Positions 24,812-44,785 are shown, counted from the stretch's first letter. The stretch is 64,000 nucleotides of DNA from an uncultured Planctomycetia bacterium (GCA_964628355.1 CAZVNB010000033.1:4965-68964), one strand, 5' to 3'. Notes: generated from the letters alone by a model not told the origin. Numbers and translations are program-made.

Positions 24812-25225
24812 TTAACCGCACTCTTTTAAAAGTTCGGGATGTTCATATTCGTTGCCGAGTACTTCCATTTTTAGATTATCAGGGTTGCCGGTAATGCCAT
24901 GCTTTTTCAAAAGCTCAATAAGCGGATGAAGCTTGCGCGAACCAAACATGTCCGGCACCGACCCCACCAAACCCACAAACCTCTGATCGCGATGCTGGAT
25001 CCGGACGACATCCCCTTCATAGATTTCTTTCCTATTTTGGTCCTCCAGTCCGGTGCTTTCAAGCAAAAAACAGTCGTTATAATGTACACGTTTCACCGGG
25101 CGATCGTTTCCGTCTTCATCTGATGGATCCTTTTCGCACAAAAGCACATGGAACAGTTTTTGATACCCACGATAATACATTTTATTTTCTTTGTGATGCC
25201 ACGCGCGAAACTTGAGTTCTTTCAT
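24812..25225 (-). CDS. YopX-like (phage-associated) domain protein
   Basis: N-terminal MKELKFRAW...YY matches the characteristic YopX-family start; 137 aa. Confidence 0.45.
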   Translation of the reverse strand: MKELKFRAWHHKENKMYYRGYQKLFHVLLCEKDPSDEDGNDRPVKRVHYNDCFLLESTGLEDQNRKEIYEGDVVRIQHRDQRFVGLVGSVPDMFGSRKLHPLIELLKKHGITGNPDNLKMEVLGNEYEHPELLKECG

Positions 25226-28000: not shown

Positions 28001-28082
28001 CGTTTGACCCCCATATGACCGTTGATTGTACCCCAAAAACTGTGTTTCTTCCAGAAAAGGGGCTCTGTGGTATAATCGGCGC

Positions 28083-28859
28083 ATGAATTGGATTCATGCT
28101 GTTATTTTCGGGGCTGTGGAAGGCATCACGGAATTTCTTCCTATCTCATCCACCGGACATCTCATTTTGACCGCACGACTTTTGGGCCTGCCCCAAACAG
28201 AAGCGATGAAATCCTTCGAGATTGCAATCCAGCTCGGGGCAATTCTCGCCGTGGTTTGGCTTTACTGGCGCTCATTGTTAGTAGAATGGGAAATATTAAA
28301 ACGCGTGCTTGCGGCGTTTTTTCCAACAGCCGTCATTGGATTTTTACTCTATCGTTTGATAAAAAAATTTCTTTTTTCTGGTGAAGCTGCCGTGCTTTGG
28401 GCGTTGGCGGTGGGCGGTTTTATCCTCATCTTTTTTGATCTGTTCCATAGAGAAAAAAGTAGCGACACCCACAACATCGCGCACGTCTCTTTTCCCAAAG
28501 CAGTGGGAATCGGCATGATCCAGTCTGTGGCCGTCATTCCGGGTGTTTCACGTTCCGCCGCAACAATTGTGGGAGGCCTTCTTTTGGGAATCGATCGAAA
28601 AAAAGCGGTGGAGTTTTCATTTTTACTCGCGGTCCCGACTATCCTTGCTGCCACGGCGTTTGATCTTCTAAAAAATAAATCAGTGTTCGCGCAAAGTGAC
28701 TGGGGGATGCTTTTATTAGGCGGTTTTGTGTCATTTATCGTCGCTATTTTTAGCATCCAATTTTTTCTTGGCTTTATTCAACAACAAAAACGCGGGCTGC
28801 TATTTTTTGGCGTTTATCGCATTCTTCTTGCCATTGTTTTTTGGAGTTTCGTGAAATGA
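28083..28859 (+). CDS. uppP: Undecaprenyl-diphosphatase
   Basis: MNWIHAVIFGAVEGITEFLPISSTGHL signature of the BacA/UppP family; multi-TM. Confidence 0.9.
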   Translation: MNWIHAVIFGAVEGITEFLPISSTGHLILTARLLGLPQTEAMKSFEIAIQLGAILAVVWLYWRSLLVEWEILKRVLAAFFPTAVIGFLLYRLIKKFLFSGEAAVLWALAVGGFILIFFDLFHREKSSDTHNIAHVSFPKAVGIGMIQSVAVIPGVSRSAATIVGGLLLGIDRKKAVEFSFLLAVPTILAATAFDLLKNKSVFAQSDWGMLLLGGFVSFIVAIFSIQFFLGFIQQQKRGLLFFGVYRILLAIVFWSFVK

Positions 28860-29977
28860 CCCCACCACTGAAAACATCCAGGACTCCGCGCCGCTGGGTA
28901 CTGATGAACCCGGGACCCGTGAACGTCACGTCTCGCGTGCGCCAAGCGCTGCTTGGCCCTGATATTTGCCATCGAGAAAAAGAATTTTCGGACGTGCTTT
29001 CCAATATCCGGAGAAAAATATTGAAAATATTTGGAATCCCTAGCACACACACGGTGGCACTGATTAGCGGTTCCGGCACAGCAGCCCTGGAGTCGATGTT
29101 ATGTTCATTCGCGGAAAAAGGAAAAAAAATCCTCGTCCTGACAAACGGGGTGTACGGCGAACGTATTCGGCGCATCCTTGAAATCCATGACACCACGGTG
29201 AACGTGCTTTCAAGCGGTGCGGGAGATTTTCCCACCGACGATCAAATAGAATCTTTTTTAAAAAGAGACTCTGCAATCCATGGAATCGCCATGGTTCATC
29301 ATGAAACGTCCACTGGTATGCTGAATCCTCTACTCAGAGTATCCGAGCTGGCAAAAAAATACGACAAAACATTGCTCGTGGATGCCATAAGCTCCCTCGG
29401 GGGCGAATCCATCAACTTCAAGAACATCGGGTTCCTTGCCGGTAGCGCAGGAAAATGTCTGCACGGATATCCAGGACTTTCATTTATCATTCTCTCGAAA
29501 AAAGAAGCCAATAGGCTGGCGGAAAAAAAACCGAGATCTCTTTATCTTGACTTGCATCATATATTGGAACTGGAGGAAAAAAACGACACACCCTTTACGC
29601 CGGCCGTGCAACTTTTCTACGCATTTGATGAAGCGCTGGATGAACTTTCTGAAGAGGGCCTCCAAAATCGCCTTCATCGCTATGAGCAGAGAAGCCGCCT
29701 GCTCGAAGAGGGTTTTATGAAGCTAGGTCTTCGTTTCTTGGTGCAGAAAGAACGGCGCTCTCATGTCCTAACCGCTCTGTGGCTACCTGAACGGCTTTCT
29801 TATAAAAAACTGCATGAGGAACTCAAAAAAGCGGGATTTGTAATTTACGCCGGACAATCACGATTCTCCGAAAAAATTTTCCGCATTTCCAACCTTGGTG
29901 AGTTGTCAAAGCGCGATATTGACAGGTTTTTAGAGGAGCTGAAAAAAATCCTGCAGCGTCATTCACGCTCCGTATGA
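28841..29977 (+). CDS. Class V aminotransferase (AGXT / 2-aminoethylphosphonate-pyruvate transaminase-like)
   Basis: N-terminal LMNPGPVNVTSRVRQAL; PLP-fold length of 378 aa. Confidence 0.7.
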   Translation: MEFREMTPPLKTSRTPRRWVLMNPGPVNVTSRVRQALLGPDICHREKEFSDVLSNIRRKILKIFGIPSTHTVALISGSGTAALESMLCSFAEKGKKILVLTNGVYGERIRRILEIHDTTVNVLSSGAGDFPTDDQIESFLKRDSAIHGIAMVHHETSTGMLNPLLRVSELAKKYDKTLLVDAISSLGGESINFKNIGFLAGSAGKCLHGYPGLSFIILSKKEANRLAEKKPRSLYLDLHHILELEEKNDTPFTPAVQLFYAFDEALDELSEEGLQNRLHRYEQRSRLLEEGFMKLGLRFLVQKERRSHVLTALWLPERLSYKKLHEELKKAGFVIYAGQSRFSEKIFRISNLGELSKRDIDRFLEELKKILQRHSRSV

Positions 29978-30636
29978 GAGATCTGCGTTTAAATCGCTTT
30001 TTCTCGAGACCGCTCACCCTACTTCTTCTCAAAACGCCGCTCACACCCAATCAAATCACTTTGATCAGCCTTGCTTTCGGAGTTGTAGCCGGAGTTCTCT
30101 TCTCCAAAGGAACCTACGGATTCTCGGTCGCGGGCGCCCTCAGTTATCAATTAGCCGTCGTGCTCGACAATTGTGACGGTGAAGTCGCCCGTGCCAAAAA
30201 CAAGCGTAGCGTGATCGGAGGATGGCTCGATGTCGGCGCAGACGTTTTGACTGATATTTGCCTTTTTCTTGGAATCGGCCTGGGGATGATAAAGCAAGGT
30301 ACAAATGGTCCGGTGCGACTTTTTATGATTCTCTGTGTGATCGGATCCCTCGCGCATTTTTTTCTTGTCGTGCTCGAAAAACTAAAAGGTTTCGGCCCAG
30401 CCGTATTTGAGGCGCCCCACCCCGAACATGAAGAAAGAAAAAGCATCCTCTTGAATATTTTTGACGCATTTCGCGAGGGCGATACCTCATGGTTTGTTGT
30501 TTTTTTCGCTGGAGTCGGCCAAACATCCGTTCTTCTATGGGCAGGCGGCATTTACATGCAACTTCTTTGGATCAGTGCCACTTTTGTCAATTTCCGCTGG
30601 CTTTTTCAAAGCACATGTATCAGGAGTCAAAAGTGA
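29974..30636 (+). CDS. CDP-alcohol phosphatidyltransferase family protein
   Basis: D-x2-DGxxAR...G...D...D motif (DNCDGEVARAKNKRSVIGGWLDVGADVLTD); multi-TM. Confidence 0.8.
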   Translation: MRDLRLNRFFSRPLTLLLLKTPLTPNQITLISLAFGVVAGVLFSKGTYGFSVAGALSYQLAVVLDNCDGEVARAKNKRSVIGGWLDVGADVLTDICLFLGIGLGMIKQGTNGPVRLFMILCVIGSLAHFFLVVLEKLKGFGPAVFEAPHPEHEERKSILLNIFDAFREGDTSWFVVFFAGVGQTSVLLWAGGIYMQLLWISATFVNFRWLFQSTCIRSQK

Positions 30637-31631
30637 GGCTGTTAAAGTTTTTTCTTATTGCACTTGGATTTTACATCCTATTCATAACCGTGAAAGTGGT
30701 TGGTATGGAAAAAATCTGGCAAAATCTTTCGGGACTACGTTGGAAACTGTTGCCGCTTGTTATATTTTATCCGATTATCTTTGCATTCGACACTCTTGGT
30801 TGGAACTATGCCTTTCCGCAAAAACTTCCGAAACAGGTGCCGTTTTTTCATCTTTATTTCATCCGCATCATCGGAGAAACATTGAATGCCGTGATCCCAT
30901 TTTCTGCTTCGCTGGGAGGCGAACCTATCAAAGCAGAGCTTTTGAAACGAAAACACGGCATTCCTCTCGCGGAAGGTTACGCCTCAATTCTAATCGTTCA
31001 CACAACGTTCTGGATATCGCTCAATTTGTTCGTGATTGGCGGCATTCTCGCGACGCTCAAAACCCTCCCACTCACGCCGATCCTTTGGAACAGCGTTTTA
31101 GTGTTTTTGGTCACGCTGGGGCTCGTGGCAGTGCTTCTTATCATTGGATTGCATTTGGGAATCTTCAAACATGTTTATGCGATCGGCGACAAATGGAAAT
31201 GGTGGGGAACAATGTCGCAGGACAAAAGTCAACGGTTTCTCAAACTCGACCACCAAATAAAAAAATTTTACACCACCCACCCGAAACAATTTTTCCTTTC
31301 AATTTTTTTCAATTTCCTAGGCTGGTTTGCGGGAAGTTTCGAGGTGTATTACATCGCAAAAATTCTCGGAATGAATATCGGCTTCGCGGAAGCCTGGCTT
31401 TTGGAAGCGCTGATCCAAGTTCTTCGTATTATCACATTTTTCATTCCGTCCAGCGTCGGCGCGCAGGAAGGTGGAATCGTCCTTATTTTCTCACAGTTTG
31501 GCTTTGGAAATCCGGTCAGCTTGGCCTTTGCGCTAATCCGGCGCTTGCGTGAGATTTTGTGGATAGGGTTGGGTTTGTTTCTGTGGTCGCTGGTTGAGGA
31601 TCGACCTAAAATTCAAGCTGAACGGGTTTGA
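30612..31631 (+). CDS. Lysylphosphatidylglycerol-synthase-like transmembrane (flippase-like) domain protein
   Basis: ~8 TM segments with the layout of the UPF0104 / MprF N-terminal domain. Start taken as ATG 30612 (MYQESKVRLLKFF) or GTG 30633. Confidence 0.55.
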   Translation, partial: HMYQESKVRLLKFFLIALGFYILFITVKVVGMEKIWQNLSGLRWKLLPLVIFYPIIFAFDTLGWNYAFPQKLPKQVPFFHLYFIRIIGETLNAVIPFSASLGGEPIKAELLKRKHGIPLAEGYASILIVHTTFWISLNLFVIGGILATLKTLPLTPILWNSVLVFLVTLGLVAVLLIIGLHLGIFKHVYAIGDKWKWWGTMSQDKSQRFLKLDHQIKKFYTTHPKQFFLSIFFNFLGWFAGSFEVYYIAKILGMNIGFAEAWLLEALIQVLRIITFFIPSSVGAQEGGIVLIFSQFGFGNPVSLAFALIRRLREILWIGLGLFLWSLVEDRPKIQAERV

Positions 31632-32506
31632 AGGTCCGCGATTTGCCCGTCTTTGCTTAGATTATCCTGAATCAGTAACTCGGCGCGGCCGCTGAGTTCT
31701 TTATTTTTATTTTCCAATTCCTTAATTCGATATTCCATCTCGTCAATTTTTTCACGGCCCGCATTGCGCCAGCCGATGTTTTGCTGCTTGAGCTCTTCAA
31801 TTTTATCTTCATAATCTTGTTTTAAGCTCGCTGCTTTTTTAAAAAGTTCATCGCGCTCCGCTTGCACTGCAGCCAATTCCATCCGCGAATCCTGCCCGTT
31901 CTTCTCGGCCTGTTTCCTGGATTCAACACGCATTTTACCGTAATAGGCCGATAGACTTCCATAGCCGGCACCAATCAAAATCACGGCCAAAAGCACGGGC
32001 CACCAAAAACTGAGTGTTTTGGGCGTGCGTTCCGTGCGAAGCTGTTGACTCAAATACGAATAAACATTTTTGATTTGTCCGTTAGTCTGTTCGTGGGCAT
32101 CTTGGATAAACTTACGATCCGCCGCGGGAGGGGATGAACGCTGGCTGAGAATTCCTTTGATCTCGGCAAGTTCACGGTTTACTTTTGCGAGATTTTCGTG
32201 ACTTGCCTTGAGCGCAGCGATTTTCTTAAGGAATTCGTCTCCCTCTGCCAGAAAAGCGCACACTTTATCCCATTCGGCAAAAGCGCGGGGCCATTCTTTT
32301 TTGATGTAATAGTTTCTGGCACGTGACAAACATTCTTCAATGATCTGCTCACGATTTTTTAAAGAATCGATTGGATTATTTTCCTGCTGCTGGGACTTTT
32401 GGGTCTCCGTCTCAAGTTCCCGTTGAATCAAAGAAAGGGTTCTCTCAAGCTCCGCCGCAGGCTGGAATTGAGGGACGTTTGACAGAGTCTCTTGTGTGTC
32501 GCTCAT
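31613..32506 (-). CDS. Coiled-coil membrane protein, hypothetical
   Basis: ORF with long heptad-rich segments and one TM segment (WWPVLLAVILIGAGYG). Confidence 0.4.
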   Translation of the reverse strand: MSDTQETLSNVPQFQPAAELERTLSLIQRELETETQKSQQQENNPIDSLKNREQIIEECLSRARNYYIKKEWPRAFAEWDKVCAFLAEGDEFLKKIAALKASHENLAKVNRELAEIKGILSQRSSPPAADRKFIQDAHEQTNGQIKNVYSYLSQQLRTERTPKTLSFWWPVLLAVILIGAGYGSLSAYYGKMRVESRKQAEKNGQDSRMELAAVQAERDELFKKAASLKQDYEDKIEELKQQNIGWRNAGREKIDEMEYRIKELENKNKELSGRAELLIQDNLSKDGQIADLQTRSA

Positions 32507-32586: not shown

Positions 32587-33897
32587 TTAAAACTTTCGGC
32601 GGTCAACCAGGCGTGAAAGTTTGCGGCCCTTCCGTAGGCTGCCTTTTTGAAAAATTTTGACGTCCAGTTTGCAAAGATCCATCTGGTATAAATTCCAGGC
32701 GTCTGGAAGATGTGATTGAAGGCCGGTAAAGATATTTTCTTTGATTTCTTGATCGCTTTTTCCGTTCGTCGATTCGACATGCAATTCAACAAGGTCTTTA
32801 TTTCCTTCTTTATCGACTACAATTTGCCAATCCTCCCCGAGTCCCGGTACGCTGCCCAATACCGGTTCGAACATCCAGGGAGCCAGATTGCCAAATCCCG
32901 TGGCCGTCCATTCATTCACGCGGCCTTTTAGTTTTTCAATGCGACGTCCCGGCAAACCGGCTTTAGACCTTCCTTCGATAAAACGCGTGATATCCCCGGA
33001 TTTATAACGAACCAGCGGCATCACACGGCGATTGAGCGTCGTGTAAACCAGCTCTCCATAACCCTCTTGGTTCCGATTCACTATTTCGAATAAATTGTGA
33101 AATTCATTCAAATGATAACCATCTTTCGCGCGCGACTCCATGCCGATCGCGCCAAACGCCTCCGTCTGTCCATAACTCAAAATAAAATCCGCTTTCCATA
33201 CCCCTTCGATATATCGGCGCGTCTGGTCCATCATATTTTCACCGCCGCCTATCATGAGTTTGATCGGCCAAGCGCCTTTTTTTTCGGCGATTTCCGTGAC
33301 GGCCAGCAACCACGAAGGATCTCCCACGATCACGCTGACACGATAATCCAAAAGACGGTCATAGAATTCCAAGGGGGAAATGCGTCCTGCTTCCACATGA
33401 AAACAATCAAGCACCTTGCAAGAAGCCGTAAGCACCGGTCCCGACACCCAAAAAGAGTAATCAAAAGAGCTGACCACACGGTCTTCAGGCCTCACGCCAA
33501 TACCCCATAAACCCACAGCACCGGCCCATCCCGCGTCCTCGATTTCATTCCTTGAAAAATAAACCCTTTTTGGTTTCTTGGAAGTCGTGCCCGTAGTCTC
33601 GTAGGCAGTGTCCGGACGCATACAAATAAATTCTTCCGGATTTTCCCGAATATCCTCGGCTGTCGTGAAAAAATCACCAAGATCCTCTGGTGATTTTACT
33701 TGGGCTACATCGATAGACCGCTCTTTAAATTTCCTCTTGTAAAACTTCGAATGCCGCGCAACAAACTGAATGGTTTTCCTGAAATTACTCTCTTCCATTT
33801 TTTTAAAAAGATTCGGCGGAAGTTTTGTGTAAAGATAAAAACCTTTTTCAGCGGAATTCCCGAATGGAATTTTATTGATGAGCGAAGCGATCGACAT
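32587..33897 (-). CDS. PaaK / coenzyme F390 synthetase-like adenylate-forming enzyme (aryl/acyl-CoA or acyl-ACP ligase)
   Basis: AMP-binding motif TTGTTSKKPKRVYFS; PaaK-family size (436 aa). Confidence 0.65.
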   Translation of the reverse strand: MSIASLINKIPFGNSAEKGFYLYTKLPPNLFKKMEESNFRKTIQFVARHSKFYKRKFKERSIDVAQVKSPEDLGDFFTTAEDIRENPEEFICMRPDTAYETTGTTSKKPKRVYFSRNEIEDAGWAGAVGLWGIGVRPEDRVVSSFDYSFWVSGPVLTASCKVLDCFHVEAGRISPLEFYDRLLDYRVSVIVGDPSWLLAVTEIAEKKGAWPIKLMIGGGENMMDQTRRYIEGVWKADFILSYGQTEAFGAIGMESRAKDGYHLNEFHNLFEIVNRNQEGYGELVYTTLNRRVMPLVRYKSGDITRFIEGRSKAGLPGRRIEKLKGRVNEWTATGFGNLAPWMFEPVLGSVPGLGEDWQIVVDKEGNKDLVELHVESTNGKSDQEIKENIFTGLQSHLPDAWNLYQMDLCKLDVKIFQKGSLRKGRKLSRLVDRRKF

Positions 33898-33900
33898 GCC

Positions 33901-35295
33901 TTAACGTCCTATCCTTTCTCTTGCGCATCTTTTAATTAATTGTTCGAACAAATCAGCGGCCAAATCCATTTCTGCTTCCGTAATGTCAAAACACGGCGCG
34001 ATCGTAAACACATTTTTGTAATAACCACCCACATCAAGCACTAGGCCGATTTTTTTTCCTTGAAAGTCTTTTAAATTACCTTTCATGCCCTCGGCGAATA
34101 TTTTATCCGCCAAGTTCCGATCAGGCGCATAGCCGTCCGCTTGCACGATTTCCATGCGCAGGGCAAGACCGATCCCGTCCACGTCCCCGATCACCTTGGG
34201 GTATTTTTTCTTCAACTTCTTAAGACGTGCCAGCAAAGATTTCCCTTTTTGCGTGACTGATTTTTCATAATCTTTTTCTTCCAACATTTTCATGAGCTCC
34301 AGGCCCACGGCTGTGCCGAGCGTGTTGGATGAAAACGTCGAATGAGTCGAGCCGGGAGGAAAAATTTTCGGCTGAATTAACTCTTCTTTCGCCCAGATTC
34401 CCGAAAGCGGATTTAGGCCATTCGTCAGCGCTTTGCCAAACACCACGATATCGGGCACAACATTGAAATTGGCCATCGACCATAATTTTCCGGCACGGTG
34501 AAAACCCATTTGAATTTCATCGTCCACCAAAAGAATTTTATGTCGATCAAGAATCTTCTTCAACATCGGAAAGTATTCTTTCGGCGGAATGACATACCCG
34601 CCGGTTCCCTGAATTGATTCGACGTAAAAAGCTCCGTACTCGGACTGGCCGGTTTTGGTGTCCAGCACGCCGTTGTACTCCGTCTCAAATAATTTCTCAA
34701 ACTGCTTCACACAGTACATTTTGCAATCAGGATATTTTTTATCATACGGACAGCGATAGCAATAAGGATATGGCACGAATTGAGCGCGATCCGAAAAGTG
34801 GCCGTAGCGACGACGGTAACGATAGCTTGACGTAATCGCCGAAGCACCCAACGTGCGGCCGTGATAACCACCCATAAATGCAAATACGAGGTTTTTGTGT
34901 GTATGATTTCGAACAAGTTTCAATGAATCCTCAACGGCCTGCGCACCGCCAACGTTGAAATGGACACGGCCTTTCTCCCCAAAAAGACGCTCCATGGACT
35001 TTGCGATTTTTTCGGCAAGCTCCACTTTTTCTTCATGTAGGTACTGGCAGGCCAACTGCGGCAGCTTGTCTATTTGTTTTTTGAGTGCCTGGCCAAGCCG
35101 CGGATTGGCATAACCAAAACTGGCCGCCGAATACCACATCTGTAAATCCAAAAATCGCATTCCCTGCCGGTCATAAAGATAACTTCCTTCACAGCGGTCA
35201 AAAAACTTCGGCGGTTCCAAATAATGCACGGTATCGCCGTATGAACAGTATTTACTCTCTTTTTCTAAAAGTTTTTTTTCATGAGCATCCATCGA
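33901..35295 (-). CDS. Class III (omega) aminotransferase
   Basis: PLP fold-type I AT-III; LVDDEIQMGFHRAGKLWS (DEIQ motif) and FGKALTNG (Lys in the GKAL context). Likely start MDAHEKKLL. Confidence 0.75.
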   Translation of the reverse strand, partial: SMDAHEKKLLEKESKYCSYGDTVHYLEPPKFFDRCEGSYLYDRQGMRFLDLQMWYSAASFGYANPRLGQALKKQIDKLPQLACQYLHEEKVELAEKIAKSMERLFGEKGRVHFNVGGAQAVEDSLKLVRNHTHKNLVFAFMGGYHGRTLGASAITSSYRYRRRYGHFSDRAQFVPYPYCYRCPYDKKYPDCKMYCVKQFEKLFETEYNGVLDTKTGQSEYGAFYVESIQGTGGYVIPPKEYFPMLKKILDRHKILLVDDEIQMGFHRAGKLWSMANFNVVPDIVVFGKALTNGLNPLSGIWAKEELIQPKIFPPGSTHSTFSSNTLGTAVGLELMKMLEEKDYEKSVTQKGKSLLARLKKLKKKYPKVIGDVDGIGLALRMEIVQADGYAPDRNLADKIFAEGMKGNLKDFQGKKIGLVLDVGGYYKNVFTIAPCFDITEAEMDLAADLFEQLIKRCARERIGR

Positions 35296-35324
35296 AAGAC
35301 CTTTCTTGAAAAGAAAAATTCCAT

Positions 35325-36017
35325 TTAAGAACGAACAAAACGTGTTTTTTTTAGCAGAGGGTGATTTTCCGCTAACCATTCCTCCACTTTTTTGAAATCC
35401 TTATAAGCTATGTGATCAATCGCATTTTCGCGGCAATGGTCCAACAACTTTCCCTTCGCAAACGTTAGGTGGGCCTGCTCAGCGGCATAACGGTCGGAGA
35501 ATCCGTCTCCGACAAAAAAAATGTGGTCATCCACAGACGTGATTTTTTTTATGAGAAGCGCCTTGCAATTAGCGCAGCCATGCACACAAGGCGCTTCGGT
35601 GCCAAAAATCACCTCAAAACCCGATTTAGTTTTTTGAAGTTTGTTGGAATAGATTGGAAGTCCCTTTAATAAACCGGGTTTTTCCTGCAAGTTGTTTTTC
35701 AACACCTGCTCAATGAAAACATCAAAACCGTCACTGACAATAGTGACAAGCACTCCGAGCTCCTCAGCTTTTTTAAGAAACGACACAAAATACGGATCCA
35801 ATTTGACTTTCGAAACCGTAGACCATAGCTCCTGGGGTGTGGCTTGGACTAATTTGATTTGACGCGATAAGCACTCACGCGAACCGATCCGACCAGCCAG
35901 CCATTCTTTTTCAACATCCTTCCAGGCTTTGTCGGCGAAACGTTCGAGCACCAAGTCTACGACGTCGTCCGCCGCGATGGTGCCGTCAAAATCCAAAAAA
36001 AAGTGTATGGTTTTCAA
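35325..36017 (-). CDS. HAD-superfamily phosphatase (subfamily IB / MtnX-like)
   Basis: Motif I FLDFDGTI, a downstream SDGF, and GDGFSD. Confidence 0.7.
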   Translation of the reverse strand: MKTIHFFLDFDGTIAADDVVDLVLERFADKAWKDVEKEWLAGRIGSRECLSRQIKLVQATPQELWSTVSKVKLDPYFVSFLKKAEELGVLVTIVSDGFDVFIEQVLKNNLQEKPGLLKGLPIYSNKLQKTKSGFEVIFGTEAPCVHGCANCKALLIKKITSVDDHIFFVGDGFSDRYAAEQAHLTFAKGKLLDHCRENAIDHIAYKDFKKVEEWLAENHPLLKKTRFVRS

Positions 36018-37294
36018 ACCTGTCTCACAATCAGAGTAATATTCTGGCCACCAAACCCAAACGAATTGCTTAAAATTGTTTTCACTTTCTGCCGGCGTGC
36101 CACGTTCGGCACGTAATCCAAGTCGCAGGAGTCATCGGGTGTTTCATAATTAATCGTGGCAGGAATCACACCCTGGCGAATCGTCAAAACACTTGCGATA
36201 AGTTCAACCGCGCCTGCCGCCGCAATCATATGCCCCAACATGGACTTGATCGAACTCATTGGAATTTTTTTAGCATTGATGCCAAAAACTTTTTTCACCG
36301 AATGAGTTTCAATTTGGTCGTTTAATTGCGTGGAAGTGCCATGAGCATTGATATAATCAATGTCCTTTGAACTCAACCGGGCGTCGCAAAGCGCCGCACA
36401 CATGGCCTGTATCGCGCCGCGGCCTTCCGGGTGCGGATCCGTGAGACGATAGGCGTCGGCACTGCCACCGTAACCGGCGAGTTCTGCCAAAATAGTCGCT
36501 TTTCTTTTTTGGGCATGTTCGAGACTTTCCAAAATCAAAACCCCGGCGCCCTCTGATAAAACAAACCCATCCCGATTTTTATCAAAGGGTCTTGAGGCTT
36601 TTTGTGGCGCATCATTTCGAGTGGAAAGTGCGGTCAGTAAATTGAAACCCGCCAGCCCCAGAGGGTGAATCATGGAATGAGCGCCGCCCGTGATCATCAC
36701 GTCCGCATCTCCGCGACGGATAATCTCAGCCGCCTCGCCAATGGCTTGGCTGGAGGCCGCACAAGCAGTCAAGCAATTCGAAACAACCCCTTGCGCATTG
36801 AACGCTTGCGACAAATGATTGACGACTTGAAATGGTTCCTGTTCCAAAAGTTTCTGCGGATTGATGCGCAACAAACTGTTGGACAAATACCGCGACGGAC
36901 TAACCGACTCGTTTTCCTCGAGCGAATCCACCAAAATAGACGCATATTCTTCGAAATCAAATCCCCCATCGCCGGCCCCGAAATACACGCCTACGCGAGC
37001 CGGATCCAAGCGATGATTTTCAAGACCAGCCTGGTGGAGAGCTTCGCCAGCTGCTTCCAGGGCAAATAAACTATTGCGTCCGAGTTTTGTTTCTGTTTTT
37101 TGCCAACGGGAAAAATTAGCTTTTTTTACTTCGCCGGCAATTTTTGTAGGAAAACTTTCAGCATTAAAAAGGGTGATGCGCCCAATGCCGGATTTTCCTT
37201 CACAAAGTGCCTTCCAAGTATCGCGCACATTATTGCCCAAGGGCGTCAGCGCTCCCATTCCTGTAATGACCGCGCGGTTAGACATATTTTTCAT
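36014..37294 (-). CDS. Beta-ketoacyl-ACP synthase II-type ketosynthase, catalytically competent
   Basis: Active-site Cys in CLTACAASS, then HGTSTQLND and GHMIAAAG (Cys-His-His triad). Confidence 0.85.
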   Translation of the reverse strand: MKNMSNRAVITGMGALTPLGNNVRDTWKALCEGKSGIGRITLFNAESFPTKIAGEVKKANFSRWQKTETKLGRNSLFALEAAGEALHQAGLENHRLDPARVGVYFGAGDGGFDFEEYASILVDSLEENESVSPSRYLSNSLLRINPQKLLEQEPFQVVNHLSQAFNAQGVVSNCLTACAASSQAIGEAAEIIRRGDADVMITGGAHSMIHPLGLAGFNLLTALSTRNDAPQKASRPFDKNRDGFVLSEGAGVLILESLEHAQKRKATILAELAGYGGSADAYRLTDPHPEGRGAIQAMCAALCDARLSSKDIDYINAHGTSTQLNDQIETHSVKKVFGINAKKIPMSSIKSMLGHMIAAAGAVELIASVLTIRQGVIPATINYETPDDSCDLDYVPNVARRQKVKTILSNSFGFGGQNITLIVRQV

Positions 37295-37295
37295 T

Positions 37296-38543
37296 TTATT
37301 TTCCTGAATAAATTTTAGTAATAATGGAAACGGCCTGGCCGTTAAAACCAAAAGCATTTGTCATCGCATATGACATCTGTTTTTTAAGCGCATTTCCAGA
37401 AACTATTTGAAAGCCCCAGTCACGCTCTGATTTCGAAAAATTTGCAACCGCCGGAATCATTTGATGCTGCAGTGCAAGTGTCGACACAATCAAATCCAGC
37501 GATCCCGCCGAAAAGCCGGTAAAACCGGTAATGGGTTTGGATGCGCTGACAAATAAATTTTTACCGGTGCCATTAAAAACCTCGGAAATCGCCTGCGCCT
37601 CACGTCGATCCTCGTCTTTTAAACCGAGACCCGTTGCCTGTAAATAATGAACATCCGAAGCCTTAAGACCGGCCTCTTTTATCGCCGCTTCCATTGCTTT
37701 TTTTCTTCCACAGTTCGATGCAGAACCAAATCCCATCACTTCCGCGTAAATTTTCGCGCCTCTTTTTTTGGCATGCTCCAGCTCTTCCAAAAGCAAAAAA
37801 CCGGCACCCTCGCCCACCACAAACCCATTTGCTGCGGCATCAAATGGACGAAAATTTGCGCTACCCGTGTGATTGAGAGCTCCCAGCAGCTGATACTGCG
37901 ACATCCCGACGGGATTCACTTTGGATTCGGCTCCGCCGGCCAACATGAGATCCGCACCTCCTCGCTCGATAATGCGAAAAGCTTCTCCCACCGCCTGCAA
38001 TCCCGCCGAAGCTCCCGTCGTAATGGTGTTGTTCATCCCCTGCAAATCAAACAAAATAGAAATATGACAAGCAGACATGTTTGGCAAATATTTGAGCAGC
38101 CACAGAGGAAATAACGTTGAAAGTCCGCTGTCTCCGAACCGCGCCAGATTCATTTTTCCTGAATCATCCAGCGAATTTTGAACGCTGTAGGCCAACTCAT
38201 CCAACTCGTGATTTAAAACACCCGATCCTACGATCACGCCAAAACGTTCATGATTAAAAGACCAGGTCTCTACGTTGGAATCATCGATCGCAAGGCGCGC
38301 GCCGGCCACAGCCAATTGAATATCGCGCGCCATGACCTTGAGAGCTTTCTTCTGTGTCACGTATTTTTCAGGGGAAAAGTCGCGAATCACGGCCGCCAAA
38401 ACTTTGCGTTCGTACGATCCGCCAAATTCATCCAAAAAACTTATCCCGGAGCGACCTTCGATTGCCGCGGCCCAAAGAGCGTCAGTTCCTTCTCCAACAG
38501 CCGTGATCGCTCCCAATCCCGTAATAACCACGCTTTTTTTCAA
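37296..38543 (-). CDS. KAS-like protein lacking the catalytic triad (chain-length-factor-like partner)
   Basis: Thiolase fold, but ITTGASAG replaces TACSS (Cys to Ala), LQATGLG replaces HGT (His to Gln), and the second His is absent (ITGFTG). Confidence 0.8.
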   Translation of the reverse strand: MKKSVVITGLGAITAVGEGTDALWAAAIEGRSGISFLDEFGGSYERKVLAAVIRDFSPEKYVTQKKALKVMARDIQLAVAGARLAIDDSNVETWSFNHERFGVIVGSGVLNHELDELAYSVQNSLDDSGKMNLARFGDSGLSTLFPLWLLKYLPNMSACHISILFDLQGMNNTITTGASAGLQAVGEAFRIIERGGADLMLAGGAESKVNPVGMSQYQLLGALNHTGSANFRPFDAAANGFVVGEGAGFLLLEELEHAKKRGAKIYAEVMGFGSASNCGRKKAMEAAIKEAGLKASDVHYLQATGLGLKDEDRREAQAISEVFNGTGKNLFVSASKPITGFTGFSAGSLDLIVSTLALQHQMIPAVANFSKSERDWGFQIVSGNALKKQMSYAMTNAFGFNGQAVSIITKIYSGK

Positions 38544-39022
38544 ATGACGATTCCTTCACTTTTTTTTGCGATTTTATAAACGTCATAGTGGTTTAAAAAA
38601 TGATCGTTAAAAACCACTGTTTTGTCCGATGAACCCGTTAAGGGGTCCATCGTGACCAAAAGCATTCTCGCCGTCGCGATACATTCGCTCCCCTGCTTTA
38701 CCTCACCGGAAATCCAAGCGCCTTCTTCACGCTCATTTTCGATGCGCGCCACAATCGTCAATTGACAAGGCGGTAGCACTGTTTTTTCGAAGCGCGCCAT
38801 CTCTATTTTTGCCAAAATAACCTCTTTTTTGAAATCAGTTCCCAAACCAAATAAAACGCCGCCAGCCTGCGCGATCATTTCAATAAAGAGTGGTTCCGGC
38901 ACACGCGGATGTCCCGGTTCATGTTCAGCAAAAAAATCCTCATTCCCATCAAAAGCTTTGATGGCTCTTGAAAAATCACCTTTCTTGAGCACCTCGAAAC
39001 GATCGACTAAATCCCAGCGCAT
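38540..39022 (-). CDS. Hotdog-fold 3-hydroxyacyl-ACP dehydratase (FabA/FabZ-like)
   Basis: HEPGHPRVPEPLFIEMIAQAG resembles the FabZ His-containing motif; 160 aa. Confidence 0.6.
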   Translation of the reverse strand: MRWDLVDRFEVLKKGDFSRAIKAFDGNEDFFAEHEPGHPRVPEPLFIEMIAQAGGVLFGLGTDFKKEVILAKIEMARFEKTVLPPCQLTIVARIENEREEGAWISGEVKQGSECIATARMLLVTMDPLTGSSDKTVVFNDHFLNHYDVYKIAKKSEGIVI

Positions 39023-39399
39023 GGGGCCTGCTCACGGGGATAGCAATAGGCAATGACATAAAAACGGCTTTTGGCGAACAAAATTTCAAGCGGGTTTTTT
39101 CTGGAAATCTTTTTGTGAAATATTCCTTTTAGGCGAAGAGAAAATCGGTTTTTTCCGGGTAAAATTTCAATGCACTTAAATCCCGAAACGCCCATCCAAG
39201 AAACGCCAAGCGCTTTAAACACGGCCTCTTTCGCAGACAAAATCATCGCAAGTGCTTGATAAGGTTTGTTGGAGGTTTCTACGTACGTGACTTCGGCAGA
39301 ACATAAAAAACTACCGAGTTTTTCGCGATGTGCTTTATAAAACGTCTTGGCTTTCTTCCATTCAAACATATCCACCCCAAGGGGCCAGGCGGCATTCAT
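39007..39399 (-). CDS. Holo-ACP synthase / 4'-phosphopantetheinyl transferase (AcpS-like)
   Basis: ~125 aa; SAKEAVFKALG matches the AcpS motif. Confidence 0.55.
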   Translation of the reverse strand: MNAAWPLGVDMFEWKKAKTFYKAHREKLGSFLCSAEVTYVETSNKPYQALAMILSAKEAVFKALGVSWMGVSGFKCIEILPGKNRFSLRLKGIFHKKISRKNPLEILFAKSRFYVIAYCYPREQAPCAGI

Positions 39400-39406
39400 T
39401 GGAAAA

Positions 39407-39802
39407 CTACTTGTGGGCGATTTGGAGCTTTCCCGAGAGATAATCCACGATCATACCGACCGTGAAAAGATTGCCCAGGTTGGACACTTGCGGATGTTTC
39501 GTGAATTCGTCCCAATTGACATTGGACATTTTTGGTTTCAATTCTTCGATGCCAGCCGGCGTGACAAGACCATTTTTTACGAAACGCGCATCGGTGAGAA
39601 TTTTTTCCGGAAAAAGTTCTCCTTTAGGTATTTTGATTTTGAACGCTTTTTCCAAGCGAAATACGATATCAAGAAAGTCGATGGATTCCGCGCCCAGGTC
39701 CTTAATCAATGAAGAATTTAAAGCTATTTTTCCTTCATCGACTTTTAGCGCTTGTGAAATTATGCTCTTGACGTTTTTAACAATGTTATCTTTTTCATGC
39801 AT
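39407..39802 (-). CDS. Acyl carrier protein with a C-terminal extension
   Basis: DLGAESIDFLDIVFRLEKAF (phosphopantetheine Ser in a DSL-like context); 131 aa. Confidence 0.65.
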   Translation of the reverse strand: MHEKDNIVKNVKSIISQALKVDEGKIALNSSLIKDLGAESIDFLDIVFRLEKAFKIKIPKGELFPEKILTDARFVKNGLVTPAGIEELKPKMSNVNWDEFTKHPQVSNLGNLFTVGMIVDYLSGKLQIAHK

Positions 39803-39833
39803 ATCCGTTTCTTAAGACTCCTTCTTTAATTCT

Positions 39834-40292
39834 TTAATTCCGCGCCGCAACCAGTGAAAAACTGGCCGTGAGCACCCGGCCAATGGGATTTCCACTATCG
39901 CCCATCAAATCCATGCGACCTTCCAAAAATGCCCGAGGTCCTTCTTTCTTCATCAATCGCGCGAAAATCCGCAACAAATTACCTGGTTTTACAAATTGAC
40001 CGAACTTTACCTCATGCACCTGTTCCAACCTCAGGAGCTGCGTGTCCGAGTTTTCCCAACCACCCAGAAGAAGCATGGCTGCTTGTTTGAGCGATTCCAA
40101 GAGTAAAACCCCTGGCATCACCGGAAAATTTTCGAAATGATCTTGCAGGAATTCTTCATTTCCTTTCAACGTGAAAAAAGCCGTAATACTCTGGTTCTTT
40201 TCTACTTCCGAAATTTTATCAATAAAAGAGAATGCACCCAAATGTTTTTTTATCCCTGAAAAAAGAGCAATTTTAACTCCGTAATATAGCAT
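39834..40292 (-). CDS. FabZ-like 3-hydroxyacyl-ACP dehydratase
   Basis: HFENFPVMPGVLLLESLKQ is the classic FabZ active-site motif. Confidence 0.75.
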   Translation of the reverse strand: MLYYGVKIALFSGIKKHLGAFSFIDKISEVEKNQSITAFFTLKGNEEFLQDHFENFPVMPGVLLLESLKQAAMLLLGGWENSDTQLLRLEQVHEVKFGQFVKPGNLLRIFARLMKKEGPRAFLEGRMDLMGDSGNPIGRVLTASFSLVAARN

Positions 40293-40328: not shown

Positions 40329-41619
40329 GGTGACGTCAATCAAATTGGGTAAATTGCTTTAAGGGTTTGTTCTTCCAGTTGTTGTTTAAGTGCGTAAAGA
40401 TGGCGTAAATGATGCGTTCACTTGAGGCGATATTCGAGAAGCAGGAGAACACTCTCGTTCTACGCCTAACCTCTCGGAAGGCCCGTTCAATGGCGTTGGT
40501 TGTCCGGATTTTGATCTGGTGCGACTTCGGACAGTCCAGGAAGGCGAGCATCTCTTCCAGGTCCTTTTCAAGACAATGAACCGCTTGGGGCGCCCTCTTC
40601 TGCCAGTCCCTCTTCCAGGCCTTGAACTCGGCGACGGCCTTGAGTCGGTTTGGTGCTTGGTAGATTCCTCGCGCCTGGTCAATCAACTCTTCTTCGTAGG
40701 CCTTCTTGCAGTAATTGGAGACATTCCTGAGCTTGTGAGCCCAACAGCGTTGGATCTTGGAGTGAGGATAGACGAGTTCAGCGGCTGTTTTTAAACCGGC
40801 TGATCCGTCCATGGCGATGAGTTTTAGGTTCTCCCCTTTAAGGCCTCTCCGATAAAGAGAATTCAAAAGAGACTCCCATGAAGCTTGGGACTCCCCCTTG
40901 GCGGTCATGAACCCGATGAGTTTCCTTTCTCCAAAGACTGTGATGCCGTAAGCTACAAGGATCTTTCGGTTGTGATACCTGCCGTTGTAGAGGGTTTTCA
41001 AGGTAATGCCGTCCAGGATGAGATATTGGTATTCATCAAGAATGGGCGCTCTGTGGAATTGTGCGACTTTTTTATCCAGTCTCTTTGTGATATTGGAGAC
41101 CGTGCCGTGGGAGACTTTTGTGTCTAGGAGCTTAGAGATGGCCTCTCCCACACGGCGGGTTGAGACTCCGGCGAGGAAGATGCCTTCTATCGGGTCTAGC
41201 ACCAGATCCTGATGGCGGTGGTATCTTTTAAAGACTCTTGTTTTAAATTCAGCTCCACGGGCTCTTGGGACCTGAATGTCTTCGACTAGACCAAACTGGG
41301 TCACAAGACCACGGGAGTAATAGCCATGCCGGTAGACGGAGGCCTTGCGGTCGTAAGGAGCGCGTTTTAGTTCCTGGGTCATCTCTTCGGCCATGGTTGA
41401 TTCCATCAGTTCCTTCAAGAGTGTTTTTACCTTTTCTTTGGCATTTTCCTGCCAGAAGTTTTCTTTGACCTCTACCCACCAATCTTTTAGAATCTGGGAT
41501 TGTGGGAGTGTTCTTCCGTGTGCTTCCATGGGCGTATTCCTCCTTTGTGTGATAACTAGAAGGATACGCCCTTTTCTTTTCCTACCTACTTGAATTTACC
41601 CAATTTATTTTACGCTACC
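40329..41619 (-). mobile_element. IS256-family (Mutator-type) insertion sequence, ~1291 bp
   Basis: A single transposase ORF flanked by imperfect ~27-bp terminal inverted repeats sharing the core AAATTGGGTAAATT (40342-40355 and 41594-41607 as the reverse complement). No clean target-site duplication detected. Confidence 0.8.
40336..41529 (-). CDS. IS256-family transposase (Transposase_mut)
   Basis: 397 aa; DDE region with conserved LILDGITLK ... MDGSAGL ... CWAHKLRN ... AIERAFREVRRR blocks. Confidence 0.9.
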   Translation of the reverse strand: MEAHGRTLPQSQILKDWWVEVKENFWQENAKEKVKTLLKELMESTMAEEMTQELKRAPYDRKASVYRHGYYSRGLVTQFGLVEDIQVPRARGAEFKTRVFKRYHRHQDLVLDPIEGIFLAGVSTRRVGEAISKLLDTKVSHGTVSNITKRLDKKVAQFHRAPILDEYQYLILDGITLKTLYNGRYHNRKILVAYGITVFGERKLIGFMTAKGESQASWESLLNSLYRRGLKGENLKLIAMDGSAGLKTAAELVYPHSKIQRCWAHKLRNVSNYCKKAYEEELIDQARGIYQAPNRLKAVAEFKAWKRDWQKRAPQAVHCLEKDLEEMLAFLDCPKSHQIKIRTTNAIERAFREVRRRTRVFSCFSNIASSERIIYAIFTHLNNNWKNKPLKQFTQFD

Positions 41620-42140
41620 TTTTCTGTAGAATTATCGAAGAACATCCAGCTGTCAACTTTATCTTTATAGATAAGTTGAAAATTATCGAGCGATCTTTGG
41701 AATCTCCTTCTCACGTCTTTTTCCGGAACGTTATGGCCTCCTTTTGAGACTCTCTGCTTTATTCGAGCCAGAGAAAGATGGGCATCAGGCACCCATAGAA
41801 AAAATAAAAAAATCTGATACCCCTCAGCCCTAAGCTGCGAAAATAATCGAGCGTTGGTTTTACCTGAAAGAGTGGTTTCAAACCCAAAATCCTTTAAGTG
41901 CGTAGCATATTCACGTATTCTCTTCAGAACTGTCCGACACGCCTGCATCGCTTCTCCTTCTGGGGAAAAGGGAGACAGCCCTTGGGCAACAAAATCTGCA
42001 TTAATAAAATTCGGGCAATGCACATAACTATGCAAAAACTCTTTAGCAAAAGTAGTTTTGCCCGAGCCGTTCGGGCCAGCGATGATGTAGAGGTTTTTAG
42101 GGTTCAAGTATTGCGTCCAACCTGTTCGATACTTTCCCAT
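41610..42140 (-). CDS. Zeta-toxin / COG4185-like P-loop kinase; the 3' end lies inside the IS terminal repeat
   Basis: Walker A IIAGPNGSGKTT with INADFVAQ downstream. The last codons (..VA-stop) are encoded by IS right-end sequence (41610-41619). Confidence 0.6.
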   Translation of the reverse strand: MGKYRTGWTQYLNPKNLYIIAGPNGSGKTTFAKEFLHSYVHCPNFINADFVAQGLSPFSPEGEAMQACRTVLKRIREYATHLKDFGFETTLSGKTNARLFSQLRAEGYQIFLFFLWVPDAHLSLARIKQRVSKGGHNVPEKDVRRRFQRSLDNFQLIYKDKVDSWMFFDNSTEKVA

Positions 42141-42500
42141 ACAATAGCGTAGGCCGCGTTCCATAATCGACTGAAATTATCATATTCATCCTTATTCGAA
42201 GGTAGCCCTATTTGTGTAAATGATGATTTGAGGATCTCTCCCTTGTAACTGACTTCTATCGATATCATGGACGCATCCAGGCCCACATAATCAAGTTTCC
42301 CCGTCTTTTGAAGCTCAGTCAGTTTTGCATAAACATCCGAGACAATTCTCTGGCCTTCACCAAACGGTTTTATTGACACTTCCGTAACTTTCCCTGTACG
42401 AATGCGGCCCGGATAATAACTTACTTTAACATAATCCTCACCAGCCCAGACTGACCTGCAAACTAATAAAAAAATGACGACTAAAAAACATTTCTTCATG
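42104..42500 (-). CDS. Secreted hypothetical protein
   Basis: Start ATG 42500 with GGAGA RBS. Signal peptide MKKCFLVVIFLLVCRSVWA. The listed 5' extension is leader sequence. Confidence 0.5.
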
Positions 42501-42514
42501 TTTTTCTCCTGGAA

Positions 42515-42710
42515 TTTAAAAAATAAACACCCCGCCTCCAAACTGGAAGCGAGGCGTCTTCTTTATTTTGTTACGCTTAACTACCCAGATTTGGGGTGCG
42601 AATGAGCGTCCAAATTGGCTCCCCGGCTTTGGACGCCATTCGAACCACAGAATCCCGCCAGGAAGTGGTGCTTTTGATCAAACTCTATAGGGTCCGTCGA
42701 AAGGGTCTTT
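42515..42710 (-). repeat. Repeat family A, copy 1 (full length): a structured ~190-bp element with a long hairpin and a terminator adjacent to the downstream gene's RBS
   Basis: Near-identical to 44786-44920 and to 46545-46636 (truncated). Hairpin 42599-42642: ~16-19 bp stem, 13-nt loop. Minus-strand terminator 42527-42557 (10-bp GC-rich stem) followed by UGUUUAUUUUUU. Confidence 0.8.
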
Positions 42711-42748
42711 TAGTATCTTTGGGGTGAAAATCCAATAAAAAGCGAGCT

Positions 42749-43189: not shown

Positions 43190-43442
43190 CCGACGCTAAC
43201 TCTTGAGACGCCAAAATCAAATGATCGCCAACCGATGCCCAGTCGCTGTAAAGAGCTTGATTATCAGCTTCCTGCGGGGTCAAATTTTCATTATAAACAT
43301 CCTGGTTGCCGAGGATATCCAAAACCCTAGACATCCCTTCGGTCAGCGAAGGATTGGCAAACAAACGGCCCGATCTAAAAAACAGTGTGCTATTCATAGT
43401 TATATTATGCCATATGAAAACGAAGGCTGACTAATTAAAAGA

Positions 43443-43471
43443 TCCCGGCTCCACGGGAAGCCGGGGCCAGC
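43443..43471 (-). terminator. Intrinsic-terminator-like hairpin 3' of the 43608-44054 gene
   Basis: Minus strand CCCGGCU-UCCCGUGG-AGCCGGG followed by AUCUUUUAAUU. A related but degenerate sequence lies at 45670-45698. Confidence 0.45.
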
Positions 43472-44700: not shown

Positions 44701-44785
44701 TTGATTCCATTTCCTAAGTAAGATACCCGCCCCTAACCGGGAGCGAGGTGTTAAGCATACAAACACAACGTTCAATACTCACTCG

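Follow-up and report, generated by a model that had tools for sequence, protein, structure and literature searches.

A class-V aminotransferase, a CDP-alcohol phosphotransferase and a PF03706 membrane protein as the probable membrane-associated half of an aminoethylphosphonate lipid pathway

Lipids with a carbon–phosphorus (C–P) bond resist phosphatases and phospholipases and spare phosphate. Decoration of the cell surface is the presumed role of roughly half of microbial phosphonate gene clusters, yet no lipid product is known for the largest family of predicted phosphonolipid clusters (PMC8942020). The 'Burkholderiales_CDP-OH' type is a predicted phosphonolipid core of seven genes, equivalent to what Yu et al. 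(2013) termed 'Group 1 phosphonolipids' (Li and Horsman, 2022; PMC8942020). PntC enzymes (PF12804) produce cytidine monophosphate (CMP)-activated 2-aminoethylphosphonate (AEP), and about 60% of phosphoenolpyruvate (PEP) mutase (Ppm) proteins are fused to a nucleotidyltransferase (Rice et al., 2019; PMC6697681). In operons for amine-bearing lipids (gpgSDF, hexSDF), the last gene repeatedly encodes a stand-alone PF03706 protein, comparable with the flippase domain of MprF (PMC12713373; 10.1101/2022.03.11.483950), and YbhN is operonic with clsB (10.1101/2022.03.11.483950). The function of the related HpnL is stated to be unknown in a source that draws no link to phosphonates (10.1101/2025.07.29.667474). 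The present analysis concerns a 64,000-nucleotide (64-kb) stretch of DNA from an uncultured Planctomycetia bacterium (GCA_964628355.1, CAZVNB010000033.1:4965-68964; the window, at its full length), in which three consecutive genes encode a class-V aminotransferase, a cytidine diphosphate (CDP)-alcohol phosphotransferase and a PF03706 membrane protein. This trio probably, though with considerable room for doubt, represents the distal, membrane-associated half of an AEP phosphonolipid pathway, the proximal half of which would be encoded elsewhere in the genome.

Four tightly packed genes, including the trio, lie on the plus strand at 28.0-31.7 kb, and the rest of the window is almost wholly minus-strand:

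28083-28859, plus strand: uppP/bacA, undecaprenyl-diphosphate phosphatase (PF02673, 231.8 bits; TIGR00753, 231.2 bits, cutoff 217.5)
28856-29977, plus strand: class-V aminotransferase, predicted AEP transaminase (AEPT; PhnW/AepZ type), 373 amino acids (aa) (PF00266, TIGR03301)
29974-30636, plus strand: CDP-alcohol phosphotransferase (CDP-OH) family enzyme, 220 aa (PF01066, full motif)
30615-31631, plus strand: stand-alone PF03706 (LPG_synthase_TM/PplT/HpnL-like) polytopic membrane protein, 338 aa, or 332 aa if started at GTG 30633 (PF03706)

The three plus-strand open reading frames (ORFs) and the domains ascribed to them in the original prediction were borne out by profile searches (PF00266, PF01066, PF03706). 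For comparison, about 100 homologues of the CDP-OH enzyme with 50-75% identity were available from Omnitrophota metagenome-assembled genomes (MAGs), with a second tier at 30-40% identity; 90-odd loci (given below by L numbers) were compared, and reference proteins were mapped onto them by tblastn.

The aminotransferase scores 74 bits on PF00266 (gathering cutoff 21.5). In phmmer searches of the PDB, its best solved relatives are three AEP–pyruvate transaminases and the Treponema PntC–AEPT fusion at E-values of 2e-59 to 2e-55 (9kk8, 2e-59; 6pd1, 5e-57; 1m32, 2e-55). From the initial description of the enzyme as PhnW/AGXT-like, the PhnW side is thus retained, whereas AGXT (3kgw) is a far weaker match (only 5e-37). 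Scores on the pyridoxamine–pyruvate, aspartate–glyoxylate, SerC and NifS/SufS models are far lower (NifS/SufS E-values of 1e-5 or weaker), and the protein groups with AEP transaminases, not with the serine–glyoxylate or cysteine-desulfurase families that had been named as the contrary outcome. Lys200 (SAGKC), Asp176 (VDAISS) and Arg343 (FRISNLG) align with SANKC, LDAMSS and FRIGNIG of 9kk8 and are invariant among 46 homologues; following the Salmonella PhnW structure, we take them to be the pyridoxal-phosphate lysine, the pyridine-nitrogen aspartate and the phosphonate-binding C-terminal arginine, respectively. On TIGR03301 (PhnW-AepZ) the protein reaches 342.0 bits, against a curated cutoff of 360.8. 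Because orthologues in clusters with Ppm and phosphonopyruvate decarboxylase (Ppd) score 327 (L091) and 343 (L059, partial), the shortfall would be a property of the clade and no mark of a different function; a further relative (L092) scores 364. Identity to AEPTs inside Ppm/Ppd clusters is about 55-63%, and the enzyme is predicted from these comparisons to be an AEP transaminase.

The CDP-OH enzyme matches PF01066 with 40.7 bits (gathering cutoff 22) and carries the complete motif D65-x2-DG-x2-AR-x8-G-x3-D-x3-D at residues 65-90 (DNCDGEVARAKNKRSVIGGWLDVGAD), the core of which is kept in 84 of 84 homologues. At least four segments are strongly hydrophobic. The protein falls far under all equivalog cutoffs, including those for phosphatidylinositol-phosphate (PIP) synthase, archaetidylinositol-phosphate synthase and DIPPS (NF045883, 53.2 bits against 170; NF040950, 56.1 against 180; NF041135, 55.9 against 580). 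Among solved structures it comes closest to AF2299 (1e-12) and IPCT-DIPPS (6.5e-10) (4o6m, 4mnd), which take soluble CDP-alcohol donors from an attached nucleotidyltransferase. Since the nearest solved enzymes use soluble CDP-alcohols and PntC makes CMP-AEP (PMC6697681), a soluble CMP-AEP donor is favoured, and the enzyme is proposed to act as an AEP-phosphonyl transferase.

The third protein scores 109.9 bits on PF03706 (cutoff 33.4) and 77.3 bits on the TIGR00374 flippase-like domain (cutoff 43.2), and its best NCBIfam match is TIGR03476 (HpnL; 156.6 bits), below the cutoff of 195.65. It had been described as an MprF-like flippase; the PF03706 membrane domain is indeed present, but the protein has only 338 aa, carries neither an aminoacyl-phosphatidylglycerol synthase domain nor any other domain, and scores 22.6 bits on the MprF model (NF033480) against a cutoff of 600. 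It is 64-72% identical to the product of the same-position gene in loci with the window's layout, and clusters with the PF03706 genes of Ppm/Ppd-linked and hopanoid-linked loci. By analogy with the operons mentioned above, it is proposed to be a lipid translocator.

The gene order around these three genes differs among relatives. The window-type layout in Omnitrophota (A2; L001, L002, L009, L011, L012, L014, L016, L092) consists of a minus-strand glmS, uppP in some loci, and the AEPT, CDP-OH and PF03706 genes on the plus strand, followed by a convergent lipid cluster. The order in this cluster is AMP-ligase, class-III aminotransferase, HAD, two ketosynthases (KS), dehydratase, AcpS, acyl carrier protein (ACP), in some loci a ketoreductase (KR), FabZ and LpxA. 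In a variant (L021), a split decarboxylase is located immediately upstream of the AEPT gene. A second Omnitrophota layout (A1; L013, L015, L059, L089, L091) combines a Ppm–PF12804 fusion, Ppd, AEPT, CDP-OH and a nucleotidyltransferase (NTP transferase), and may include a PF03706 gene on the other strand (L091, L059) or a PhyH/PhnY*-like hydroxylase (L089, L091). The Ppm domains of this layout carry the diagnostic EDKxxxxxNS motif, and the decarboxylase of the Ppm-linked relatives of the window clade passes the Ppd cutoff. Its proteins are 51-60% (CDP-OH) and 55-63% (AEPT) identical to those of the window, and in neighbour-joining trees of both enzymes the A1 and A2 sequences are intermixed in one Omnitrophota clade. 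The AEPT and CDP-OH of the window thus appear to be orthologues of genes in complete Ppm/Ppd clusters, and their sequences carry no sign of a change in function relative to the PEP-mutase-linked orthologues. The phosphonolipid route suggested in the original prediction is supported by this clustering of the orthologues with PEP mutase and phosphonopyruvate decarboxylase genes.

Outside the Omnitrophota, a third arrangement (C) is found in Chlamydiota, Nitrospirota, Myxococcota, Auribacterota and other MAGs and consists of Ppm-NTP, Ppd, AEPT, NTP transferase, CDP-OH and PF03706. A further set, in Binatia, Methylomirabilota and Gammaproteobacteria, has only the CDP-OH gene, with or without PF03706. 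In MAGs of Binatia, Methylomirabilota and related groups, the CDP-OH gene is often accompanied by a convergent PF03706 gene, and no phosphonate genes are found within 10 kb (L037, L041, L044, L046-L048, L050-L053, L055, L058, L060-L062, L064, L066, L070, L079). Where flanking sequence suffices, the CDP-OH gene has a PF03706 gene within 6 kb in 59 of 70 loci, AEPT in 38 of 69 and Ppd in 27 of 59. The co-occurrence of CDP-OH, PF03706 and AEPT is beyond chance, with the CDP-OH/PF03706 pair forming the invariant core; all three genes are conserved together in relatives, the lack of which had been named as a contrary outcome.

The trio is intact, translationally coupled and conserved at 52-72% identity in at least 10 genomes, which points to purifying selection. 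This conservation bears on the view that the trio is the remnant of a complete cluster that has lost Ppm, Ppd and PntC, so that AEP would be scavenged, or the aminotransferase would act catabolically, as PhnW does, with the membrane pair devoted to another lipid. A complete cluster in L089 adjoins a PEP carboxylase gene, and the equivalent neighbourhood of the window lacks the first genes of that cluster; L017 and L019 are reduced further, the aminotransferase also being gone. Such a decay is nevertheless very improbable given the maintenance of the three genes, and neither an AEP transporter nor a phosphonatase (PhnX/PhnA) is present in the window. Scavenged AEP, moreover, could not be activated without a cytidylyltransferase.

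If the trio is instead the attachment half of a functioning AEP pathway, PEP mutase, Ppd and a cytidylyltransferase would be encoded at another site of the genome. The aminotransferase gene is linked to PEP mutase and Ppd in the orthologous loci L059, L089 and L091, but not within the 64-kb window. Linkage between Ppm and window-type loci was assessed through NCBI protein accessions, which only named proteins carry, so that three window-type genomes were usable. In GCA_050731015.1, the CDP-OH protein (MGH7198286) and a Ppm-NTP protein (MGH7198886) have accessions 600 apart. Contig 241 of this MAG (L092) carries a window-type locus that lacks Ppm, Ppd and NTP transferase, and contig 335 (L093) begins with a Ppm–PF12804 fusion, followed by Ppd and then by unrelated genes. 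The L093 Ppm has the EDK motif, and the adjacent Ppd scores 375.7 bits on TIGR03297 (cutoff 312.5). The composition of the two contigs agrees (GC 58.0% and 56.6%; tetranucleotide r = 0.96, against at most 0.80 with other loci). The other two window-type genomes (MBI4433118, MBI3251879) show no Ppm accession nearby and are uninformative, only four Ppm accessions being available. Pairing CDP-OH and Ppm matches by the length of their contigs yielded nothing beyond L089 and L091, in which the genes are already neighbours. At least one genome with the window layout thus has a split pathway, with a supply unit and an attachment unit at separate loci, and the Ppm-PntC and Ppd genes on another contig of GCA_050731015.1 make such a split plausible for the window. 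Ppm–PF12804 fusions are abundant in Omnitrophota (at least 120 matches at 55% identity or more), and the fused PF12804 domain can supply the cytidylyltransferase step.

In the proposed pathway, a PEP mutase fused to a PF12804 PntC domain, together with phosphonopyruvate decarboxylase, would produce phosphonoacetaldehyde; we infer that these enzymes are encoded in this genome outside the window. The class-V aminotransferase (28856-29977) would convert phosphonoacetaldehyde to AEP, which the PntC domain would activate with cytidine triphosphate to CMP-AEP. The CDP-OH enzyme, with CMP-AEP as donor, would then transfer the aminoethylphosphonyl group to a lipid hydroxyl at the cytoplasmic face of the membrane, diacylglycerol being a default guess for the acceptor, and the PF03706 protein would carry the amine-bearing lipid to the outer leaflet. 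The initial idea of a module for head-group synthesis and translocation is upheld in this form, except that making the head group takes more than these three genes.

Several observations weigh against this pathway. A tblastn search with reference sequences of related loci and a Pfam/NCBIfam sweep of essentially all ORFs in the 64 kb found no PEP mutase, Ppd, nucleotidyltransferase or phosphonate hydroxylase in the window. The precedent for a split layout comes from a single MAG, in which binning can misassign contigs. The aminotransferase scores slightly under the curated TIGR03301 cutoff, and the close relatives L017 and L019 keep CDP-OH and PF03706 without an aminotransferase at the locus. 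About 28 distant loci in Binatia, Methylomirabilota and Gammaproteobacteria have no phosphonate genes nearby, which indicates that the CDP-OH/PF03706 pair is not intrinsically phosphonate-specific; the pair may serve other head groups too. No member of the 'Burkholderiales_CDP-OH' family has a characterised lipid product (PMC8942020), and the flippase activity of stand-alone PF03706 proteins is predicted without demonstration (PMC12713373).

Some of these points would equally fit an amino-phospholipid without C–P chemistry, for which the aminotransferase would yield another amino alcohol or amino-alcohol phosphate and the CDP-OH enzyme would join it to CDP-diacylglycerol, as in PIP, phosphatidylglycerol-phosphate and phosphatidylserine synthases. 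The lack of Ppm, Ppd and cytidylyltransferase genes in the 64 kb, the aminotransferase score just below the cutoff, and CDP-OH/PF03706 pairs without phosphonate genes in other phyla are all consistent with it, as is the presence of PIP and archaetidylinositol-phosphate synthases among the weak family matches of the CDP-OH enzyme. However, the window genes are intermixed in trees with orthologues from bona fide Ppm/Ppd clusters and are indistinguishable from these Ppm-linked orthologues in family scores and catalytic residues. In addition, Ppm-PntC and Ppd are encoded at another place in the genome of a relative that shares the layout, and the solved enzymes most similar to the CDP-OH enzyme take soluble CDP-alcohols, not CDP-diacylglycerol, as donors. 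A product lacking the C–P bond is accordingly considered unlikely, and an AEP lipid is preferred.

The identity of the acceptor brings in the genes downstream. A convergent cluster at 32587-40292 encodes an ACP, ketosynthases, a class-III aminotransferase, a HAD protein and a PaaK-like ligase, and the trio, or the CDP-OH/PF03706 pair, is convergent with such a cluster in all 11 window-type loci with enough flanking sequence (L001, L002, L009, L011, L012, L014, L016, L017, L019, L021, L092). The product of this ACP/KS cluster could thus be the acceptor in an otherwise unchanged AEP pathway, as could a polyprenol, given that uppP is translationally coupled upstream in the window; either would yield a new class of phosphono-lipid. 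Yet the conserved synteny also takes in glmS, rsmI, YopX-domain, pyr genes and lpxA, for which inherited gene order suffices as an explanation, and the orthologous clusters in L089 and L091 are far from any ACP/KS cluster. The two gene sets are on opposite strands, with an unrelated gene between them in the window. About half of the window-type loci have no uppP; the gene precedes the trio in L008-L011, L014 and L016 and is absent in L001, L002, L012 and L092. Any functional tie between uppP and the module is uncertain. The original prediction had joined both gene sets into one membrane-lipid locus of about 11.5 kb. The convergent synteny is conserved in the 11 loci, but these belong to one lineage only and the synteny includes housekeeping genes; because glmS, rsmI, the YopX-domain gene, pyr genes and lpxA are conserved as well and the A1 orthologues are located elsewhere, a single functional unit does not follow from synteny alone.

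The same module also occurs inside the hopanoid clusters of sister Omnitrophota, where it is located between hpnH and hpnA, which suggests that a non-glycerol acceptor is possible. The order in these loci (B) is DUF116, squalene–hopene cyclase (SHC), HpnH, in some loci a 286-aa protein, a split decarboxylase, AEPT, NTP transferase, CDP-OH, PF03706, HpnA, LytB and HpnG. As a whole, a non-glycerolipid acceptor for AEP in the window has a low probability in our estimation. A still broader possibility is that the CDP-OH/PF03706 pair is a general device for transferring phosphonyl groups to non-glycerolipids, which would place AEP on an amino- or hydroxy-lipid of the ACP/KS cluster here and on bacteriohopanepolyols in sister Omnitrophota. 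This would imply new phosphonolipid classes and a first function for HpnL-type proteins, but is likewise regarded as doubtful. For the window, the AEP pathway with diacylglycerol as the provisional acceptor is retained.

The hopanoid-embedded modules are of interest in their own right. Split Ppd-like decarboxylase, AEPT, NTP transferase, CDP-OH and HpnL-like PF03706 genes are inserted between hpnH and hpnA of squalene–hopene cyclase loci in L004 (3939-9254), L005, L023-L029, L031-L035, L040 and L042, and in L043 and L069 together with Ppm-NTP in the locus. The HpnL-type gene product of such loci scores 169 bits on TIGR03476, likewise below 195.65. The arrangement suggests an AEP-modified hopanoid and a possible role for HpnL; no link between AEP, hopanoids and HpnL was made in the literature searched. 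The window itself lacks hopanoid genes (no SHC, HpnH or HpnA match by tblastn in the 64 kb).

A conserved 286-aa protein (80-83% identity among loci) is encoded directly upstream of the decarboxylase in L004 (3939-4799), L005, L023, L028, L031, L033 and L042. It was considered as a divergent Ppm and rejected: it has no Pfam or NCBIfam match and no tblastn similarity to Ppm, and is absent from the otherwise identical loci L024-L026. Sulfopyruvate or phosphohydroxypyruvate was also considered as the substrate of the split decarboxylase in hopanoid-type loci, as these lack Ppm and the sulfopyruvate and phosphonopyruvate models give the decarboxylase beta subunit equal scores; this idea was set aside for the window clade because the decarboxylase of its Ppm-linked relatives passes the Ppd cutoff.

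The junctions of the gene string are tight. The uppP start is placed at ATG 28083, as family alignments begin at residue 20 of the long ORF. For the aminotransferase, a start at TTG 28841 had been given; ATG 28856 is most likely instead, because it has a GGAG 9 nt ahead of it and alignments with homologues begin at residue 13. This start overlaps the uppP stop in ATGA, so that the translational coupling claimed for three genes extends to four: the stop/start overlaps are present in all three genes of the trio, and uppP is coupled upstream of them. The aminotransferase stop and CDP-OH start overlap in a second ATGA (29974-29977). The CDP-OH stop (30634-30636) overlaps the PF03706 gene by 22 nt if ATG 30615 is used, or by 4 nt (GTGA) if GTG 30633 is used, with AGGAG (30623-30627) upstream of the latter. 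On the other side, glmS is divergent; its longest ORF overshoots, and the true start is the MCGIFG codon at 28000. Signals and a gene that flank the string are:

28067-28076, plus strand: putative extended -10 promoter element TGgTATAAT, read from the sequence (weak evidence)
31677-31698, plus strand: terminator-like hairpin with T-run, a consensus match only (9-bp stem, 5 GC pairs, tail CTTTATTTTT)
31613-32506, minus strand: coiled-coil/single-transmembrane protein, 297 aa, no Pfam or NCBIfam family (hydrophobic segment at residues 165-183)

The putative -10 element lies in the 82-bp divergent glmS–uppP spacer; having no -35 match, it was not picked up by a consensus promoter scan. Only 6 nt lie between the end of the element and the uppP ATG, so that the mRNA starting with uppP may lack a leader. 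The hairpin is the best-scoring site of the consensus scan, 46 nt past the PF03706 stop and within the 3′ end of the convergent gene. This convergent gene, which encodes the 297-aa protein, overlaps the PF03706 gene by 19 bp, tail to tail, and L008, L009 and L011 are the only loci with a homologue (35-40% identity) in this position. It lies between the trio and the minus-strand lipid cluster, which the module had been said to abut directly.

Several features of the surrounding DNA are recorded here. Between fabZ (39834-40292) and lpxA (47736-48524) lie an IS256-family transposase gene (40336-41529) and some 6 kb of ORFs, most of which defy annotation; those in 40336-47700 include a zeta-toxin/AAA-like gene (41610-42164) and a DUF2335 gene (42749-43189). 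This region looks like an insertion because fabZ and lpxA are adjacent in L001, L002, L014, L017 and L092. A ketoreductase gene (adh_short/KR) is located between fabZ and the ACP gene in L001, L002, L021 and L092 and is missing in the window, L014, L016, L017 and L019; in the window only 31 bp (39802-39834) lie between fabZ and the ACP gene. The YopX-domain family is usually of phage origin. A minus-strand gene of this family (24812-25225; PF09643, TIGR01671) stands beside rsmI and glmS in the window, L001, L002 and L092, and appears to be a fixed chromosomal gene of the lineage, not prophage cargo. At 54313-58648 on the minus strand, dxs (54313-56274) and a polyprenyl synthase gene (56278-57114) adjoin the gene for the exonuclease VII large subunit, xseA–ispA–dxs being the usual arrangement. 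With dxs and polyprenyl synthase, the window thus contains isoprenoid supply genes, and no squalene or hopanoid genes are present there.

Omnitrophota are mostly uncultured and often ultra-small groundwater bacteria, and C–P lipids may be relevant to an episymbiotic or oligotrophic way of life. The result adds incrementally to annotation and reveals no new mechanism. It extends the Group 1 family into Omnitrophota and indicates that the pathway can be split into a unit for soluble AEP supply (Ppm-PntC and Ppd) and a unit for membrane attachment (AEPT, CDP-OH and PF03706); genome mining centred on Ppm would therefore miss the attachment genes.

Comparison with known systems places the locus as follows. 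AF2299, IPCT-DIPPS and the PIP and archaetidylinositol-phosphate synthases share with the CDP-OH enzyme of the window the catalytic motif DxxDGxxARx8Gx3Dx3D and the class of small polytopic folds. The window enzyme differs in lacking a fused nucleotidyltransferase domain, no inositol-phosphate synthase gene lies near it, and its substrates are presumably others. The PF03706 protein has its domain in common with MprF, YbhN/PplT of E. coli, GpgF of P. aeruginosa and HexF of C. difficile and, as in gpgSDF (PMC12713373), is encoded by the last gene of an operon for an amine-bearing head group. Its partner, however, is a CDP-alcohol phosphotransferase, whereas MprF, GpgF, HexF and YbhN are paired with a glycosyltransferase, a phospholipase D-type synthase or an aminoacyl transferase. 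HpnL is the best NCBIfam match of the third gene, and in other Omnitrophota the homologue accompanies CDP-OH and AEP genes between hpnH and hpnA of squalene–hopene cyclase loci.

The Pnt pathway, exemplified by the Treponema denticola PntC-AEPT protein (6pd1; PMC6697681), has a homologous AEPT (5e-57) and the same nucleotide activation of AEP before its transfer to the cell surface. In the Pnt examples, which presumably decorate glycans, PntC is accompanied by LicD-like phosphotransferases or glycosyltransferases (PMC6697681), whereas the transferase of the window is an integral-membrane CDP-alcohol phosphotransferase and the window has no PntC gene.

The closest described system is the Group 1 core. 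Omnitrophota are absent from the published RefSeq survey (PMC8942020). The Burkholderia cenocepacia locus (L094) carries CDP-OH, PF03706, NTP transferase, Ppm-NTP, Ppd and AEPT genes consecutively, with 25-39% identity to the window genes, and the trio is thereby homologous to three of the seven core genes. In L094 (B. cenocepacia CMCC(B)23006, NZ_CP091013.1), the AEPT homologue (15016-16113) has an in-frame stop, owing either to decay into a pseudogene or to faulty sequencing; the record describes the 3.2-Mb replicon as a 'plasmid' and annotates just 4 features on it. Ppm-PntC, Ppd, a second PntC and an alpha-ketoglutarate/PhyH-type oxygenase of the core are absent from the 64 kb but present in the sister loci L089 and L091, and the window differs further in having uppP coupled upstream. 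AEPT, CDP-OH and PF03706 are common to both, and by sequence the trio is best regarded as a rearranged Omnitrophota member of this already predicted phosphonolipid gene family.

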